From: Enterobacteria phage P922
DNA length: 64,000 nucleotides
Sequence record: OR999189.1
Reading direction: 5' to 3' (one strand)
Of this stretch, positions 5,484-23,935 are shown piece by piece. Below the pieces are notes generated by a model. It was not told where the DNA came from. It worked only from the letters and a program-made list of their open reading frames with translations, and did no database searches. The position numbers and the translations under genes were made by a program. Position 1 is the first letter of the stretch; the number at the start of each line of letters is the position of its first letter.

Positions 5484-5818
5484 GAAACCGGGTCGCTACC
5501 GGTAAGTCGTCGGACTGATGTTCCCTGGAGTATAGTTTCTCCCACAGTTTTACTGTGTTCTGATTCTTTACTATCACAGCAGAAACGGCGCACCGAATTA
5601 TCGATTCGAGGAAATATCTTTGCCGTAAGCCGAGTAGCGTTTTTGACGGAACGTTCGGATATGATCGAGATATGGCCTTTTAAAAATATTGAGTAGCGTC
5701 AACTACTTAATAACCGGGTTCGAATCCCGGCGTTTCGTACAAACACTTGCCTTAGCAGGTGGAACCCCGACAAGGTTGCCGCAAGGCTTAGCCCCGACCG
5801 AAAGGTTGGGGCTTTTTA
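5484..5818 (+). ncRNA. candidate stable small RNA(s), T4 species 1/2 (rnaC/rnaD)-like region with tRNA-like T-arm
   Basis: About 330 nt without a convincing ORF next to the tRNA cluster; hairpins CCGGGTCGCTACCGG and CCGGGTTCGAATCCCGG; ends in GCCCCGACC-GAAA-GGTTGGGGC + T5. Confidence 0.3.
5791..5818 (+). terminator. intrinsic terminator
   Basis: GCCCCGACC-GAAA-GGTTGGGGC hairpin + TTTTT. Confidence 0.6.
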
Positions 5819-5907
5819 GTTTGAATCACATAGAGAATGCTGTTACGGATAATAACAAAGTAATAAATAATTAATAACCAACCGATAAATTATTTCAAGG
5901 ATTTTAA

Positions 5908-6471
5908 ATGAAAACCTATGCCGAATTTTTAACCGAAGCAGCAAAATTACCATCTGAAGCAGATCTTACTAAAGTATTCTTCCAATTAGACCCAAAAGAC
6001 CGTGGCGATTTTCTTAAGTGGAAAGCTAAAGCTATTGAAATGTATAACATCGATAATAGTTCTTTTACGATGAGTCAAGAAAATAAATTCAATAAAGCAT
6101 TTTTCAAAATTTCTAAGAAATTGGCATCAGGCGCTCAGGTTCCTAAATCTGCCTTAGCTACTCCTGAACGTGCACCTGTTAAAATTTCTAAGAATATGTT
6201 TGACACTAAAAAATATGTTAATGCTTTGAATAAAGCTCTTGACGCATTGGATGATGCAAAGAAGGCAGCCCGTGATCTTCAAGACGTGTACACCGATTTT
6301 GATCGTAAAACTAAAGGTTCTATTTCAAATAGCGAACGCAATAGTGTAAGTGTTTATTCTGATAGCCTTGATGTTCTTGGCGATGCGTATACTGAAATTA
6401 AAAATCGTATTAACACTGCATCTAAGCTAAAAGCTGCCGCAGAAGCTATAATAACTAAACTAGATAAATAA
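5908..6471 (+). CDS. internal-protein-like with CTS leader MKTYAEFLTEA
   Basis: 187 aa, Lys/Ala-rich, N-terminal MKTYxEF leader. Confidence 0.55.
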   Translation: MKTYAEFLTEAAKLPSEADLTKVFFQLDPKDRGDFLKWKAKAIEMYNIDNSSFTMSQENKFNKAFFKISKKLASGAQVPKSALATPERAPVKISKNMFDTKKYVNALNKALDALDDAKKAARDLQDVYTDFDRKTKGSISNSERNSVSVYSDSLDVLGDAYTEIKNRINTASKLKAAAEAIITKLDK

Positions 6472-6480
6472 TTTTAAATC

Positions 6481-6506
6481 CCTATCTAAATGATAGGGCT
6501 TTTTGG
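6481..6506 (+). terminator. intrinsic terminator
   Basis: CCCTATC-TAAA-TGATAGGG hairpin + CTTTTT. Confidence 0.55.
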
Positions 6507-6637
6507 TATCTAGGCCTTTCTGGACCTCTCTAGGCATCATTTAGTTTCTACCCTTTATAATATATTATCCTATCCTTTAATTGCCCCTCCCTGCCCTAGA
6601 ATTCTCTAAAACTTTTTAAAAATTTTTTCACAAAACT

Positions 6638-6667
6638 GTTTACACCCTTGTCATTCCATGGTACTAT
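6638..6667 (+). promoter_or_regulatory. T4-type early promoter
   Basis: TTTTTCACAAAACTGTTTACA ... TGGTACTATAC. Confidence 0.6.
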
Positions 6668-6710
6668 ACAACTATCAACTACTGATACAGAAAACAACTT
6701 GGAGAATGAA

Positions 6711-6974
6711 ATGGATAATTACGGCGAACTGTTCAACTTCTTTATGAAATGTGTTTCAGAAGATTTCGGTCGTACAGTGAATGATATTAAAGTTATCGGT
6801 CCTGACTATCCGATGTTTGAAACTTACGCAGTAATGGGTAATGAAGACGGTCAGTGGTATACTGTAAAGGTTGTGATTAACATGTTCACTGCTGAAGGTT
6901 ATGTTAAACTGTCTTCTAAAGTTTACCATGATAACGACGAAATTGCAGAAGAATATTTTAATAATATGAAATAA
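6711..6974 (+). CDS. hypothetical protein (start MDNYGELF)
   Basis: ATG at 6711 after GGAGAATGAA; the listed upstream start at 6648 lies inside the promoter. Confidence 0.5.
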   Translation: MDNYGELFNFFMKCVSEDFGRTVNDIKVIGPDYPMFETYAVMGNEDGQWYTVKVVINMFTAEGYVKLSSKVYHDNDEIAEEYFNNMK

Positions 6975-7029
6975 GTTTACATAGGCTCATGATTGAGATA
7001 TTATGAGCCTATAATTTGAGGAAACTGTT

Positions 7030-18800: not shown

Positions 18801-18824
18801 AGTCTCCTTCGGGAGACTTTTTTC
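18801..18824 (+). terminator. intrinsic terminator
   Basis: AGTCTCC-TTCG-GGAGACT + TTTTTT. Confidence 0.7.
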
Positions 18825-18833
18825 ATTTTACCG

Positions 18834-18863
18834 GTTTACTTTCCATTTGAGCTGTGATACTAT
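18834..18863 (+). promoter_or_regulatory. T4-type early promoter
   Basis: GTTTAC ... TGTGATACTAT, immediately after terminator hairpin. Confidence 0.6.
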
Positions 18864-18891
18864 ACAACCATCGGATAAAGAGGAGAACATC

Positions 18892-19080
18892 ATGAAAATT
18901 GAAGCACTTAATCAAGAAGGAAATATCTACGTCATCATTAATGGTGATTTTTTCGTCGACATGGATGAAGTTACTAGTGAAGAACTTGAAGAACTTCTTA
19001 AGAAACGTTATGATATGTGTGATGAAGCTGCAACTCACATGGCGTGTGCAATATTCTCTCTTTCATATGTGGTGGAATAA
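18892..19080 (+). CDS. hypothetical small acidic protein
   Basis: ATG 18892 after AAAGAGGAGAACATC. Confidence 0.4.
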
Positions 19081-19283
19081 TGATTAGTATCGAACAAGCA
19101 GATAAAATTAAAGAATTGGTAGCTTTAATTCGCAAAGCAGATGGGGAACTTAGTGACTTTGGTTGGTTTTCGTCAGGTATTGCAAATAAAGGTATTGAAG
19201 AATTTGAAGCTAAAGTTGATAATGCTGTAGAAGCTTTAGATATGTTTCTTGATGAAATTATCGATCATAATACGAGAGTTTAA
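19080..19283 (+). CDS. hypothetical small protein
   Basis: ATG 19080 ([13 protein letters not shown]...). Confidence 0.4.
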   Translation: MISIEQADKIKELVALIRKADGELSDFGWFSSGIANKGIEEFEAKVDNAVEALDMFLDEIIDHNTRV

Positions 19284-19285
19284 GT

Positions 19286-19480
19286 ATGCTGACACACGAA
19301 CAGTTTGAAAAAATCATTAAATTAGTACGTGATGTTGAAATAGATTCATATCAATTAGCAGTTGAGCATTGTGAAGGATATTCATACGACGGTATAGAAG
19401 CAGCTAAAAGAGATTTGGATAAATCCAAAGCTAAGTTAGTTCAATATCTTGAAATGATTAGGTGGAATAATGAAAACTGA
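19286..19480 (+). CDS. hypothetical small protein
   Basis: 64 aa ORF. Confidence 0.4.
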   Translation: MLTHEQFEKIIKLVRDVEIDSYQLAVEHCEGYSYDGIEAAKRDLDKSKAKLVQYLEMIRWNNEN

Positions 19481-19634
19481 AAAGCAGATGTTTTTAATGA
19501 AGCTAATTGAAGAATATGCTAATGCAGTTTCTGACTATGAGTATTCTTCTCGTGAAAGAGGTACAGCTTTCGCAAAGGAAGAAATGAAAATTATGGTTGA
19601 TGCTCACACAAAGCTTCAGAATTTTATTGAAAAC
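19470..19634 (+). CDS. hypothetical small protein (below the ORF-track length cutoff)
   Basis: ATG 19470 after GGTGGAATA; 54 codons. Confidence 0.3.
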
Positions 19635-19636
19635 GT

Positions 19637-19666
19637 CATTTAACGGTTTACAAGTTGGCAAGGTTA
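19637..19666 (+). promoter_or_regulatory. T4-type early promoter (nucleotidyltransferase operon)
   Basis: GTTTAC ... TGGTATAGT. Confidence 0.55.
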
Positions 19667-19810
19667 TGGTATAGTAATCTTGTCAACTGCTAAGGAGAAG
19701 AGAATGAAAGTTTTGTTTGTTGTGTATGTGATGATTCAATATAATTACCCAATGTTTACTTATAATCTGGTGAACAACATTATTGATATTATTCAAAGGA
19801 GTATGTAATT

Positions 19811-20368
19811 GTGAGTGAGTCGAAGAGAATCAATATGAAACGATTAGTACTAGAAGTTAGTTCACTTTTTGGTGAATTGGCTATAGAAAAAGTAAATAAT
19901 ATGTATCGTTTGACGCAAGAAGACGATATGCTATATTTTACGCCTAGCGAAATTATTCATTTAACCCAAATTGAAAAACCTTACACTGATAAAATTGTAA
20001 GCATTAATGATGAGCATAAAATTCATTTCTATTCTTTATGCCCAGGATTTAACATTGAAAGCGAGTCAATATGCTTATCAATTAATAATTGGGATAATTT
20101 TATAACTAAAATTAAATATTTTTATTATTCTAACGAAAGAAAACATGGTTTAAAATGGTTTAAAAATTGCAATGCTATTATTACTAACGATTGCAATCAG
20201 AATGATGAAACTCTTTTAAATGTATCAAAATGTTATGAAGAGGGAGATGTCTTAACTATTCGTCAAATTGATGATTTTCGATCACATATTGTCACATTTA
20301 CCAAAGACGAAGCTATTGCGCTAAAGACTTATCTTGATTCTGTCATTCCAACTATGATTTCAAAGTGA
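19811..20368 (+). CDS. hypothetical protein, paralog of the next gene
   Basis: GTG start after AAAGGAG; shares GFNIE(S/D)E and C-terminal EA-A-K-YL-V-P-M motifs with 20375-20896. Confidence 0.5.
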   Translation: MSESKRINMKRLVLEVSSLFGELAIEKVNNMYRLTQEDDMLYFTPSEIIHLTQIEKPYTDKIVSINDEHKIHFYSLCPGFNIESESICLSINNWDNFITKIKYFYYSNERKHGLKWFKNCNAIITNDCNQNDETLLNVSKCYEEGDVLTIRQIDDFRSHIVTFTKDEAIALKTYLDSVIPTMISK

Positions 20369-20374
20369 GGAAAT

Positions 20375-20896
20375 ATGTTTATTTCAAGTGAAAGCGGTTT
20401 AATTCGTGTTGAATTTAAAAATGACATCTTCCTTATTCAAGGAGATGATATTATTAAAATGAGTTATGACGAAATCAAGAAAATTTGTCATATTCTTGAA
20501 AGTCGTGGAAAAGGAAATGCTACTATCGATATAGGTGATTTATGGGTGACACTTTATGAAGTATCCGAAGGATTTAACATTGAAGATGAAAACAACATCT
20601 TAGCTATTGATAAAAGAAGTGATTTGTTTGATGTGTTAAAAGTTTATGAACAGTCAAACGGTGGAAGAAAAGCTGCATTGATTTATCAAAAACCACATTC
20701 ATGTGGAACTGCTTCAATCATTTCAAATATTGAAGATGAAACTGATACTTATATGTGTGTTTTAAAAGCTGGTGGTGACCGTCATCCGGATTTTATTTCT
20801 ATTCGTCAAAACAATGGAGAAATTTCATTATCAAAATCAGAAGCTGAAGCTATGATTAAGTATTTAACAACTGTTACACCTTCAATGAAAGGATAA
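20375..20896 (+). CDS. hypothetical protein, paralog of 19811-20368
   Basis: 173 aa; shared motifs with the preceding gene. Confidence 0.5.
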   Translation: MFISSESGLIRVEFKNDIFLIQGDDIIKMSYDEIKKICHILESRGKGNATIDIGDLWVTLYEVSEGFNIEDENNILAIDKRSDLFDVLKVYEQSNGGRKAALIYQKPHSCGTASIISNIEDETDTYMCVLKAGGDRHPDFISIRQNNGEISLSKSEAEAMIKYLTTVTPSMKG

Positions 20897-20898
20897 TT

Positions 20899-21360
20899 AT
20901 GATTATTAATGAAAGCTCTTGGCACTATAAATTATTCAAAATGTTTAATGATGAATGGAAACGACCTAAGACACTGTGTGCATACTTTTGGTCTATTGTT
21001 ATCCCTACATTTTTCGTTTCTTTTTTCGGATGTACTATACTCGCAGGTCTAACTATTATCTGTGCAGAAATCATGCAGAAATGGTTTATTTATGGTAGTT
21101 TATGGACTCTTATTCCATCAGCATTTATACTTGCTATTTTGCTTGTTTTACTTATTATTGGTTCATTTGTTATTCCTGCACAACTACATGAAAAATATAA
21201 AGATTATAAATGGAAAAAGGATTATGCTTTACATGTAGAAAATATTGATAGGGCGTATAAAGGTTTACCTCCTATTCAACCCAAGAAATCTATTATCGTC
21301 GAATTTTTAAAAACGCGTAAAGCTAAAGTATGTCCTGTTATTGAATATAAGGCTGAATGA
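20899..21360 (+). CDS. membrane protein (two TM helices)
   Basis: 153 aa with long hydrophobic segments. Confidence 0.5.
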   Translation: MIINESSWHYKLFKMFNDEWKRPKTLCAYFWSIVIPTFFVSFFGCTILAGLTIICAEIMQKWFIYGSLWTLIPSAFILAILLVLLIIGSFVIPAQLHEKYKDYKWKKDYALHVENIDRAYKGLPPIQPKKSIIVEFLKTRKAKVCPVIEYKAE

Positions 21361-22370
21361 TGAAAACAGTAATGAAAAGCTATTTCGGTAGTCATCTTTA
21401 TGGAACTTCTACTCCAGAATCTGATGTAGATTTTAAAGAAATCTTTGTTCCTCCTGCTCGTGATATTCTTATCGGAAATGTTAAAGAGCATATGAGTAAA
21501 AACACTAACAACACATCATCTAAAAACACTAAAGATGATATTGACCATGAACTATACAGTCTTAAGTATTTCTTTAAATTAGCAGCAGATGGTGAAACTG
21601 TAGCATTGGATATGCTTCACACTCCACCTGAGCTAGTGGTTAAATCTGATTTGCCTGATGTATGGAAGTTTATTCAAGACAATCGTTCTCGTTTTTATAC
21701 GACTAACATGAAATCCTATTTAGGATATGTCCGCAAGCAAGCTTCTAAATATGGTGTTAAGGGTTCTCGTTTGGCTGCATTACGTGATGTATTGAAAGTA
21801 GTTAATCAAATCCCCGATCAGTGGGTTGATTACCGAGAAGATGGAACACAAGGACAACGTCGTACTAAAGTTGAAGATATTAAGCATCGTCTTCCAGAGA
21901 ACGAATTCTGCGAATGGGTATTCCATAATCATGAGAAAACAGGCCCACAGACGTTCTACACAGTGTTGGGTCGTAAATATCAGACAACGCTTTCTCTTAT
22001 TGAGCTTAAGCAGTCACTGAACAAATTAGATGCTGAATACGGTGAACGTGCTCGTAAGGCCGAAGCCAATGAAGGTATTGACTGGAAAGCTCTGAGTCAT
22101 GCTTGCCGTGGTGGACTCCAACTATTGGAAATTTACAAAACTGGTGACTTGGTTTATCCACTCCAAGATGCTCCATTTATTCTCGACGTGAAGTTGGGTA
22201 AACATCCATTTAAAACGGTTCAAGAGTTTTTGGAAGATGTGGTCGATCAAGTAGAAGCAGCATCTACTGAAGCTTCTAAGAACGGTATGCAGCAAAAAGT
22301 AGACATGGGTTTTTGGGATGACTTCCTTGAGAGGGTTTATCTTGAAAACCACCGAAGTTATTATAAATGA
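21360..22370 (+). CDS. pol-beta superfamily nucleotidyltransferase-like protein
   Basis: N-terminal YFGSHLYGTSTPESDVDF fits the hG[GS]x(9-13)DxD nucleotidyltransferase signature; ends at a strong terminator. Confidence 0.6.
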   Translation: MKTVMKSYFGSHLYGTSTPESDVDFKEIFVPPARDILIGNVKEHMSKNTNNTSSKNTKDDIDHELYSLKYFFKLAADGETVALDMLHTPPELVVKSDLPDVWKFIQDNRSRFYTTNMKSYLGYVRKQASKYGVKGSRLAALRDVLKVVNQIPDQWVDYREDGTQGQRRTKVEDIKHRLPENEFCEWVFHNHEKTGPQTFYTVLGRKYQTTLSLIELKQSLNKLDAEYGERARKAEANEGIDWKALSHACRGGLQLLEIYKTGDLVYPLQDAPFILDVKLGKHPFKTVQEFLEDVVDQVEAASTEASKNGMQQKVDMGFWDDFLERVYLENHRSYYK

Positions 22371-22372
22371 TA

Positions 22373-22398
22373 GGGAGCCTTCGGGCTCCCTTTTTTAT
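22373..22398 (+). terminator. intrinsic terminator
   Basis: GGGAGCC-TTCG-GGCTCCC + TTTTTT. Confidence 0.7.
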
Positions 22399-22420
22399 TT
22401 CAAAAATTTTTCACAAAATT

Positions 22421-22450
22421 GTTTACAAGCATAAAGCTTTATGGTACTAT
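22421..22450 (+). promoter_or_regulatory. T4-type early promoter
   Basis: TTTTTCACAAAATTGTTTACA ... TGGTACTATAC. Confidence 0.6.
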
Positions 22451-22633
22451 ACAACTATCAAAACAAACACTTAAACGGAAAAACAAAATGAAAATTACAC
22501 CAATTGAAGTAAAAAAGTTGATTGACACAGAAGAAATTTCAGAGTGTTTTGAAAGTTTCTTAGAAGATGCAACTGAAGATAATGCAGTTTATCTCGCTCA
22601 GAAAATTATCGAAACTTATTTGGAGAAGAATCA

Positions 22634-22897
22634 ATGACAGTTTACGTAGATGTTTTAATGAATCATGGATGGAAACTTCGCGGTCATCCAACTAAAAATT
22701 GTCATATGTTCACTGATGGAGATATTGAAGAGCTTCATGAAATGGCAGAAGCAATAGGAATGAAACGTTCTTGGTTTCAAGATAAACGCATTAAACATTA
22801 TGACTTACACGCTCGGCGACGCCAAAAAGCTATAGAACTTGGCGCCGTAGAAGTATCTCGTCGCGAAGCAGTAAAAATTTGGCAAACATTAAAATAA
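22634..22897 (+). CDS. hypothetical protein
   Basis: 87 aa ORF. Confidence 0.45.
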   Translation: MTVYVDVLMNHGWKLRGHPTKNCHMFTDGDIEELHEMAEAIGMKRSWFQDKRIKHYDLHARRRQKAIELGAVEVSRREAVKIWQTLK

Positions 22898-22900
22898 ATT

Positions 22901-22930
22901 GTTTACAGCAGGGTAGTAGTGTGATACTAT
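22901..22930 (+). promoter_or_regulatory. T4-type early promoter (AAA+ gene)
   Basis: GTTTAC ... GTGATACTAT. Confidence 0.55.
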
Positions 22931-22966
22931 TACCCTATCAAAACAAATGTAAAATTGGAGAATAAA

Positions 22967-23935
22967 ATGAAAACTGTAACTATCAATAAGGGTATCTACT
23001 TCGGTAAAGAAATCTCTGGAACTTTTGAGCTCTTAGGTGAATGGTTCCCAGATAATGCTCCGGTAGATGCACAAGGAGATGGTAAAGTTTTTGTTGAAAT
23101 TGACGGTAAGCGTCGCGGTGTTTGGGTTTACAAATCAGACATTTCATATGATGGTGTAAAAGTTGAAGAAGTTAAAGAATCATATGAAGATATGAAAACC
23201 CGCATTAATAAAAGATTTAATGTTATGGGAATGATGACGAATGGTATTATTAACGGAAATATTCGTTCATTAATTATCTCTGGTGCGGCGGGTATTGGTA
23301 AAACGTATTCTTTAGATAAAGCTTTGAATAAAGCAAATGATAATGGATACATTGAATATAAAAGCATTAATGGTAAAATCTCTGGTATCGGTCTTTATGA
23401 ACAGCTTTGGAATAATCGTGAAGAGAATTCTGTCCTTTTGATTGATGATGTGGATGTTTTCTCTGATATGGACATTCTTAATCTTCTGAAAGCTGCTCTG
23501 GACACTGGAGAGACCCGTAAAGTCTGCTGGAGCACCGCATCTTCTTACTTAGAAGAAAAAGGCATTGAGCGTGAGTTTGAATTTAAAGGAACGATTGTTT
23601 TTATCACAAACGTTGACATTGACCGCGAATTAGACCGTGGTACTAAACTTGCTCCACATTTACAAGCATTAGTGTCCCGCTCGGTTTATTTGGATTTGGG
23701 TGTTCACACTAATGAAGAAATTATGGTCAGGGTTGAAGATGTTATTCTTTCAACTGACATGATGCAAAAGCGCGGTCTTTCTGATGAAGAAACTTATAAA
23801 GCATTATCATGGATGAAAGTTAATGTTAATCGTTTACGCAATGTTTCACTGCGTACTGCTCTTTATCTTGCTGACTTTATTATGACCGACAAAAACGGTT
23901 GGGAAGAAATTGCTGAGGTTACTCTTCTGAAATAA
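22967..23935 (+). CDS. AAA+-type ATPase
   Basis: Walker A SGAAGIGKT and Walker B VLLIDDVD; ATG 22967 after GGAGAATAAA. Confidence 0.65.
   Translation: MKTVTINKGIYFGKEISGTFELLGEWFPDNAPVDAQGDGKVFVEIDGKRRGVWVYKSDISYDGVKVEEVKESYEDMKTRINKRFNVMGMMTNGIINGNIRSLIISGAAGIGKTYSLDKALNKANDNGYIEYKSINGKISGIGLYEQLWNNREENSVLLIDDVDVFSDMDILNLLKAALDTGETRKVCWSTASSYLEEKGIEREFEFKGTIVFITNVDIDRELDRGTKLAPHLQALVSRSVYLDLGVHTNEEIMVRVEDVILSTDMMQKRGLSDEETYKALSWMKVNVNRLRNVSLRTALYLADFIMTDKNGWEEIAEVTLLK

Follow-up and report, generated by a model that had tools for sequence, protein, structure and literature searches.

What does the nucleotidyltransferase at the end of an early gene block in Enterobacteria phage P922 do for the phage? 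We analysed a stretch of 64,000 nucleotides (nt) of sequence record OR999189.1 (the window, to which all positions refer), for which a preliminary description had proposed a promoter-to-terminator operon around an enzyme of the polymerase beta (pol-beta) superfamily. That description thought of CD-NTases and of MNT/AbiEii toxins, and of an enzyme that makes or modifies a nucleotide signal or nucleotidylates a host factor. Region 19637-22398 is the T4-type early block mobD.2 - mobD.1 - nrdC.11. We judge it on balance probable that its NrdC.11 adds nucleotides to RNA 3' ends in the repair of transfer RNA (tRNA).

The phage is a Tequatrovirus (T4-like): positions 19600-22450 share 97.6% DNA identity with Shigella phage CT01 and match 707 phage records, nearly all of them from T4-like phages of Escherichia, Shigella or Yersinia. 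The plus strand of the window corresponds to the minus strand of T4 in T4 coordinates. The product of the last gene of the block is the ortholog of T4 NrdC.11 (NP_049709, labelled nucleotidyltransferase in RefSeq), with 97% identity over 336 residues, and the gene has the same place before nrdC.10 and the same terminator as in T4. We take T4 NrdC.11 to be UniProt entry Y05H_BPT4.

The family membership of NrdC.11 is clear from profile searches. The protein, which contains YFGSHLYGTSTPESDVDF, matches the Pfam family RlaP (PF10127) with 44.2 bits against a cut-off of 23 (E 2.6e-11, covering profile positions 23-142 of 249) and phrog_388, 'nucleotidyltransferase', with E 1e-136. A HMMER search of the whole library yielded 3422 cluster representatives of homologs at E<=1e-3. 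In an alignment of 52 of these, at 34-54% identity, the residues G10, S11, D22, D24 and D62 are invariant throughout, D84 is nearly invariant, and the C-terminal helices hold four more invariant residues, R230, K243, H247 and R250. NrdC.11 thus has the hG[GS], the DxD and the third acidic residue of the pol-beta signature. When NrdC.11 is aligned by hhalign with 11 canonical RlaPs of ~250 amino acids, the catalytic core is matched with 94.4% probability (E 9.4e-8), D22, D24 and D62 are paired with the invariant D39, D41 and D72 of the canonical proteins, and G10-S11 is aligned with their invariant S26-G27. A K-x3-[YH]-x2-R motif also appears common to the C-terminal helices of both, as read off the two consensus sequences outside the hhalign alignment. 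Judged from its sequence, NrdC.11 is a divergent subfamily of the RlaP pol-beta nucleotidyltransferases. We found no second RlaP in the window.

The structure model of NrdC.11 (predicted local distance difference test, pLDDT, 94.4) agrees with this placement, and its fold matches are led by nucleotidyltransferases. It has a nucleotidyltransferase core followed by helices, ending in helices 316-335, and an extra beta insert. The crystal structure of the bacterial PfRlaP shows an N-terminal nucleotidyltransferase domain and a C-terminal helical domain that form a cleft, with the last helix packing on the N-terminal domain (PMC12776372). NrdC.11 resembles PfRlaP and PaRlaP in its pol-beta core, with GS, DxD and third aspartate aligned, and, going by the model, in the order of a nucleotidyltransferase domain and a helical C-terminal part. 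Searched by sequence against solved structures, NrdC.11 had no match at E<=1, and PfRlaP was absent from the matches of this PDB search and of two fold searches. The pol-beta assignment made beforehand is supported by the PF10127 match, the invariant GS and DxD residues and the fold matches of the model. Neither a different fold nor a loss of these residues among the 52 homologs was found.

The assignment is real but already known, because nrdC.11 was described as a nucleotidyltransferase homolog as early as 2006 (PMC1524935), RefSeq carries the label, Pfam and PHROGs have the families, and a preprint of December 2025 by Carruthers, Fatma and Huang names NrdC.11 an RlaP, assigning the T4 protein to the family as cluster 5 (PMC12776372). 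Names in GenBank are frequently wrong: NrdC.11 is found as 'thioredoxin' or 'HNH homing endonuclease', and MobD.1 as 'molybdopterin-guanine dinucleotide biosynthesis protein MobD' or 'thymidine kinase'.

The same preprint describes what two bacterial members of the family do. PfRlaP and PaRlaP add 1-2 nucleoside monophosphates to the 3'-OH of RNA with a preference for Mn2+, and are inactive on DNA and protein (PMC12776372). The bacterial RlaPs show little specificity for the nucleoside triphosphate and label a large number of E. coli RNAs, full-length tRNA and ribosomal RNA among them. In vitro the 3' end of a broken anticodon loop is favoured over the acceptor 3' end, and aminoacylation of tRNA missing one anticodon-loop nucleotide is partly restored (PMC12776372). 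An earlier prediction, which was applied to phages, held that RlaP restores nucleotides removed by RloC-like nucleases before ligation (PMC7824862).

The genomic neighbourhoods of NrdC.11 relatives point to RNA repair. We counted the neighbours within 5 kb in 80 bacterial and archaeal loci whose NrdC.11 homologs are 32-54% identical. At least one of RtcB, Pnkp, RtcA and TROVE is near the homolog in 18 of the 80 loci, with RtcB found in 10, a Pnkp-type kinase-phosphatase-ligase in 8, RtcA in 2 and Ro60/TROVE in 2. Canonical RlaP genes have the same linkage to RtcB, RtcA and Pnkp. In the viral contig L031 a 43%-identical homolog is followed by an ATP-dependent ligase and RtcB. A canonical RlaP itself lies within 5 kb in 25 of the 80 cellular loci, and immediately downstream on the same strand in ~23 of them. 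In these loci with two nucleotidyltransferases (including L038, L053, L063, L070, L083, L085, L087, L092, L100, L107 and L109), the canonical protein has ~250 amino acids, and Pnkp or RtcB is often found upstream.

Taken together, these neighbourhoods and the biochemistry of the bacterial RlaPs make the restoration of nucleotides on nuclease-damaged tRNA, before ligation, the likeliest role of NrdC.11. The host RNA polymerase would transcribe the block from a T4-type early promoter, probably with read-through from upstream, up to the intrinsic terminator. As in other pol-beta enzymes, two metal ions would be bound by D22, D24 and D62 of NrdC.11. As for the bacterial RlaPs, its substrate would be RNA, to whose 3'-OH ends it would add one or two untemplated nucleotides, and its job would probably be to replace nucleotides that anticodon nucleases, RloC for example, have removed from host tRNAs. 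A usable tRNA could then be sealed by the phage's Pnkp and RNA ligase 1.

Several points weigh against this role. RlaP activity is known only for PfRlaP and PaRlaP, and the role of the phage protein is assigned by analogy. The similarity to canonical RlaP is confined to the first ~90-135 residues of NrdC.11, which is ~85 residues longer, and its C-terminal two thirds, with the beta-rich insert at ~150-210, cannot be aligned to canonical RlaP by sequence; its substrate or product could therefore differ. NrdC.11 also forms a separate network cluster (cluster 5), and its relatives in bacteria are often found beside a canonical RlaP and do not replace one. The side-by-side occurrence in 25 of the 80 loci argues that the two types are not equivalent and suggests that they have different jobs. 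Many of these cellular loci are metagenome bins, which may include prophage or viral contigs. There is no ligase or kinase gene in or near the block, and in T4 the gene rnlA, which the annotation assigns to tRNA repair with PseT, is ~80 kb away. RnlA and NrdC.11 are spread over phage genera in almost the same way, which counts for the role, but this match is confounded by the shared ancestry of T4-like phages. Finally, T4 tolerates the loss of its nrdC.11-mobD.3 region under laboratory conditions (PMC9825161), so any role of NrdC.11 is a conditional one.

Some of these observations could mean that the NrdC.11 subfamily has an activity of its own, for example the specific or guided restoration of one tRNA nucleotide, with the Y05I proteins encoded upstream presenting the RNA and the block countering tRNA-trimming nucleases. 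The distinct C-terminal two thirds, the beta insert and the frequent pairing with a canonical RlaP beside Pnkp or RtcB are the reasons to consider it. We regard this as improbable.

It could also be asked whether NrdC.11 acts on RNA 3' ends for some other purpose, such as rebuilding the CCA ends of tRNA or tailing host or phage RNAs to alter their stability. The enzyme class would be the same, the bacterial RlaPs label RNAs broadly and with little nucleotide specificity (PMC12776372), and phage nrdC.11, in contrast to canonical RlaP genes, does not adjoin a ligase gene. However, the relatives are linked specifically to the sealing and end-healing enzymes RtcB, Pnkp and RtcA, and the preference of RlaP is for the broken anticodon loop over the acceptor end (PMC12776372). 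We therefore think such a purpose unlikely, if the least unlikely of the alternatives.

The classes and functions named in the preliminary description are not supported. No model of PADLOC-DB v2.0.0, a collection of defence-system proteins, matches any of the five proteins of the block (for NrdC.11 none at E<=1), no CD-NTase family is among the Pfam matches, and the block contains no effector-like neighbour, which led us to reject a CD-NTase or cGAS-like signalling enzyme. NCBIfam gave nothing above threshold. It is highly improbable on this evidence that NrdC.11 makes or intercepts a nucleotide signal, whether it were a CD-NTase-like enzyme or a factor against CBASS, Pycsar or Thoeris, and its relatives accompany RNA repair genes rather than effectors or sensors.

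The MNT, MntA and AbiEii type was rejected as well, as the matches of NrdC.11 to NTP_transf_2 (13.5 bits against a cut-off of 21) and to MntA (13.2 against 60) stay below the curated thresholds and no HEPN or toxin gene adjoins nrdC.11 in the block. Such faint matches might still hint at the nucleotidylation of a protein or small molecule, as when MntA AMPylates HEPN toxins or as performed by aminoglycoside nucleotidyltransferases, and the fold matches do include kanamycin, lincosamide and aminoglycoside nucleotidyltransferases. We consider this very unlikely, since E. coli proteins are not labelled by bacterial RlaPs (PMC12776372) and the relatives sit in RNA-repair neighbourhoods. Hailong HalB and the kanamycin/aminoglycoside nucleotidyltransferases (PDB 9dbh, 1kny, 6un8) are 9-15% identical to NrdC.11 with TM-scores of 0.24-0.29, share no sequence-profile membership with it, and have other substrates and other gene contexts. 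In place of a nucleotide signal or a nucleotidylated host factor, the family evidence favours RNA 3'-end addition in RNA repair.

The features of the block are collected in Table 1.

Table 1. Genes and predicted transcription signals of the mobD.2 - mobD.1 - nrdC.11 block.
Feature	Positions	Strand	Length (amino acids)	Remarks
Upstream T4-type early promoter	18835-18863	+		Motif match; putative read-through into the block
T4-type early promoter	19647-19675	+		TTTACA 19647-19652, 17-nt spacer, TATAGT 19670-19675, extended TG
mobD.2 ortholog	19704-19808	+	34	91% identical to T4 MobD.2; phrog_3515 E 6.5e-22; GGAG ribosome-binding site
mobD.1 / Y05I paralog a	19811-20368	+	185	GTG start, alternative ATG at 19835; 88% identical to T4 MobD.1
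Y05I paralog b (Y05I_b)	20375-20896	+	173	Absent from T4
Membrane protein	20899-21360	+	153	phrog_944 'membrane protein' E 1.1e-48; absent from T4
nrdC.11 ortholog, RlaP-family pol-beta nucleotidyltransferase	21357-22370	+	337	Or 21360-22370 (336) from the second ATG, as annotated in T4
Intrinsic terminator	22372-22397 (hairpin 22372-22391)	+		AGGGAGCC-TTCG-GGCTCCCT, then T-run

How is the block transcribed? Its T4-type promoter is kept upstream of mobD.2 among close relatives. In the whole window the T4 early motif (TTTAC[AT], spacer, TGnTAnnnT) has 20 matches on the plus strand against one on the minus strand, and mononucleotide shuffles give a mean of 0.33 against these 20. The site at 19647 is one of them, flanked by those at 18835 and 22422. 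Many of the 20 share the upstream sequence tcacaaa(g/a)(t/c)tgTTTAC. The promoter had been placed at 19637-19666; it exists, about ten bases further on. The view that it alone drives the genes is oversimplified, because no plus-strand terminator is found within 18818-22372, and hence none between the upstream promoter and 19647. Across 17-25 kb the plus-strand terminators are only those at 18801 and 22372. The block is thus probably read from its own promoter and, we infer, by read-through from 18835-18863.

The strong terminator proposed at 22373-22398 was confirmed one base earlier, with a stem of 8 bp (6 G-C pairs), a TTCG loop and a T-run. Related phages also have terminator hairpins right after nrdC.11, some of them with other stem sequences. 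The gaps between the five genes are, in order, 2, 6, 2 and -4/-1 nt, the last pair overlapping, and a Shine-Dalgarno-like sequence precedes each gene. This spacing is consistent with a single transcript, and a T4-type early promoter and an intrinsic terminator around co-oriented, close-packed genes predict a T4 early transcription unit. The late promoter motif TATAAATA does not occur in the block (6 times in the whole window, against 10 expected), and a simple MotA-box/middle-promoter pattern has no match in 19000-23000. A sigma-70-like site at 19910-19937 was taken as a chance match, lying within coding sequence and lacking the T4 early motif.

The upstream genes were largely as first described. 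The 34-codon peptide gene, given as 19703-19807, is real and lies one base further on; its peptide, called hydrophobic, is so only in the first ~14 residues by hydropathy. The two proteins described as paralogs are indeed related (BLASTP 29% identity, E 4e-11) and share the GFNIE(S/D)E and C-terminal EA.A..YL..V.P.M motifs. Both belong to the T4_y05I family (PF24449 and PF24448), whose two domains exceed the threshold in each of them: T4_y05I_N with E 9.5e-41 (138.9 bits) and T4_y05I_C with E 6.6e-21 (74.9 bits) in paralog a, and 110.1 and 83.3 bits in paralog b. The membrane protein has the two long hydrophobic stretches expected of the two transmembrane segments claimed for it, at residues 25-60 and 62-98 by hydropathy, and a basic C-terminal tail.

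A structure model of Y05I_b, built with database homologs, has an overall pLDDT of 78.8, with 80-93 in the N-terminal two thirds and 54-82 in the C-terminal third. The model consists of three beta4-alpha units in one chain, the repeated beta-beta-beta-beta-alpha arrangement of the PUR/Whirly-like fold. On this model the Y05I paralogs look like members of a single-stranded nucleic-acid-binding class that includes PUR, Whirly, MRP1-MRP2 and PC4 proteins, Y05I_b resembling Pur-alpha, MRP1/2 and Whirly proteins. They differ from this class in packing three units per chain, and there is no sequence similarity. The family is narrow, with 38 clusters that all come from T4-like (enterobacterial) phages, and we found no paper describing the function of Y05I or MobD.1. 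No further Y05I copy was found in the window. Protein P0281 (179 amino acids) matches paralog a in its N-terminal half and paralog b in its C-terminal half, and looks like the product of a recombination between the tandem paralogs that deleted the sequence between them.

The close packing of five genes between one promoter and one terminator raises the question whether they form one module, in which the Y05I proteins and the membrane protein recruit or regulate NrdC.11; the preliminary description had likewise seen the membrane protein and the paralogs as its partners. A predicted resemblance to binders of single-stranded RNA or DNA would suit an RNA-acting enzyme, and loci with NrdC.11 down to ~60-65% identity retain the order Y05I - membrane protein - NrdC.11. 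This conserved order is weak evidence of coupling because T4-like genomes are broadly syntenic. The comparison across phages speaks for independence. In T4 the HNH homing endonuclease gene mobD occupies the place that in this phage, as in the ~430 phage records with Y05I_b at >80% identity, is taken by the second Y05I paralog and the membrane gene. In a natural T4-like genome (L005; IMGVR_UViG_2974742932_000001, 5817-7011) NrdC.11 is 95% identical while none of mobD.2, the two Y05I genes and the membrane gene is present. The phage records with NrdC.11 number 1565, against 910 with the membrane protein and 472 with Y05I_b. In phages of the Klebsiella/Enterobacter type a conserved open reading frame (ORF) of ~175 amino acids, sometimes with another of ~75, parts the membrane gene from nrdC.11, and the closer association is that of a Y05I C-terminal unit with the membrane gene directly behind it. 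By tblastn, Aeromonas-type loci, RB43-like loci and all 80 cellular loci have no Y05I or membrane partners. We therefore find a single module improbable. The four upstream genes are neighbours of NrdC.11, predicted to be co-transcribed with it, and not obligate partners, and their arrangement here is the common one among Tequatroviruses.

The variant loci have further features. In L005 the early promoter is also missing, and a mobD.3-like ORF directly abuts nrdC.11. The Klebsiella/Enterobacter-type loci L018-L023 and L028 have an unannotated protein of 136-184 amino acids between the membrane gene and nrdC.11, and in L018, L019 and L020 a single-unit protein of 65-75 amino acids, matching only the Y05I C-terminal domain, is encoded directly upstream of the membrane gene. 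In the Aeromonas-type loci L026 (4376-5434), L027 (4776-5834) and L029 (4007-5065), where Y05I and membrane genes are absent, a 352-amino-acid protein with a C-terminal NUDIX domain is encoded one or two ORFs upstream of nrdC.11. The N-terminus of this protein has a GRFxxxHxGH motif and looks like a nicotinamide mononucleotide (NMN) adenylyltransferase.

On either side of the block in the window are other genes. Upstream, three tandem small paralogs (19080-19283, 19286-19480 and 19470-19643) all match Pfam DUF7438 and correspond to T4 mobD.4, mobD.3 and mobD.2a, of which the last is split by a frameshift in T4. Downstream, between nrdC.11 and nrdC.10, a separate early promoter (22422-22450) precedes an ORF of 49 amino acids (22488-22637) and a DUF4031 protein (22634-22897). 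This insert (22422-22897) is absent from T4 and UFV13 and is positioned elsewhere in loci L014 and L022. The NrdC.10 ortholog (22955-23935) has only sub-threshold matches to AAA and STAND-type NTPases, for example nSTAND3 and AAA_16.

For the annotation itself, the preliminary finding of a nucleotidyltransferase adds nothing new. What the present analysis adds is a shift of the hypothesis from signalling or toxin-like enzymes to RNA repair, together with the observation that the neighbouring genes are dispensable and that the Y05I proteins, as modelled, resemble binders of single-stranded nucleic acids. T4 provided the first known RNA repair system, in which Pnkp and RNA ligase 1 counter the anticodon nuclease PrrC. 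Nucleases of the RloC type also remove a nucleotide, which should defeat simple resealing. An RlaP-type enzyme in ~1500 sequenced T4-like phages is the obvious candidate for the missing nucleotide-restoring step, and has been published as such in the form of a prediction. If this is true in vivo, the restoration of nucleotides by NrdC.11 would complete a classic story of the arms race between host and phage.

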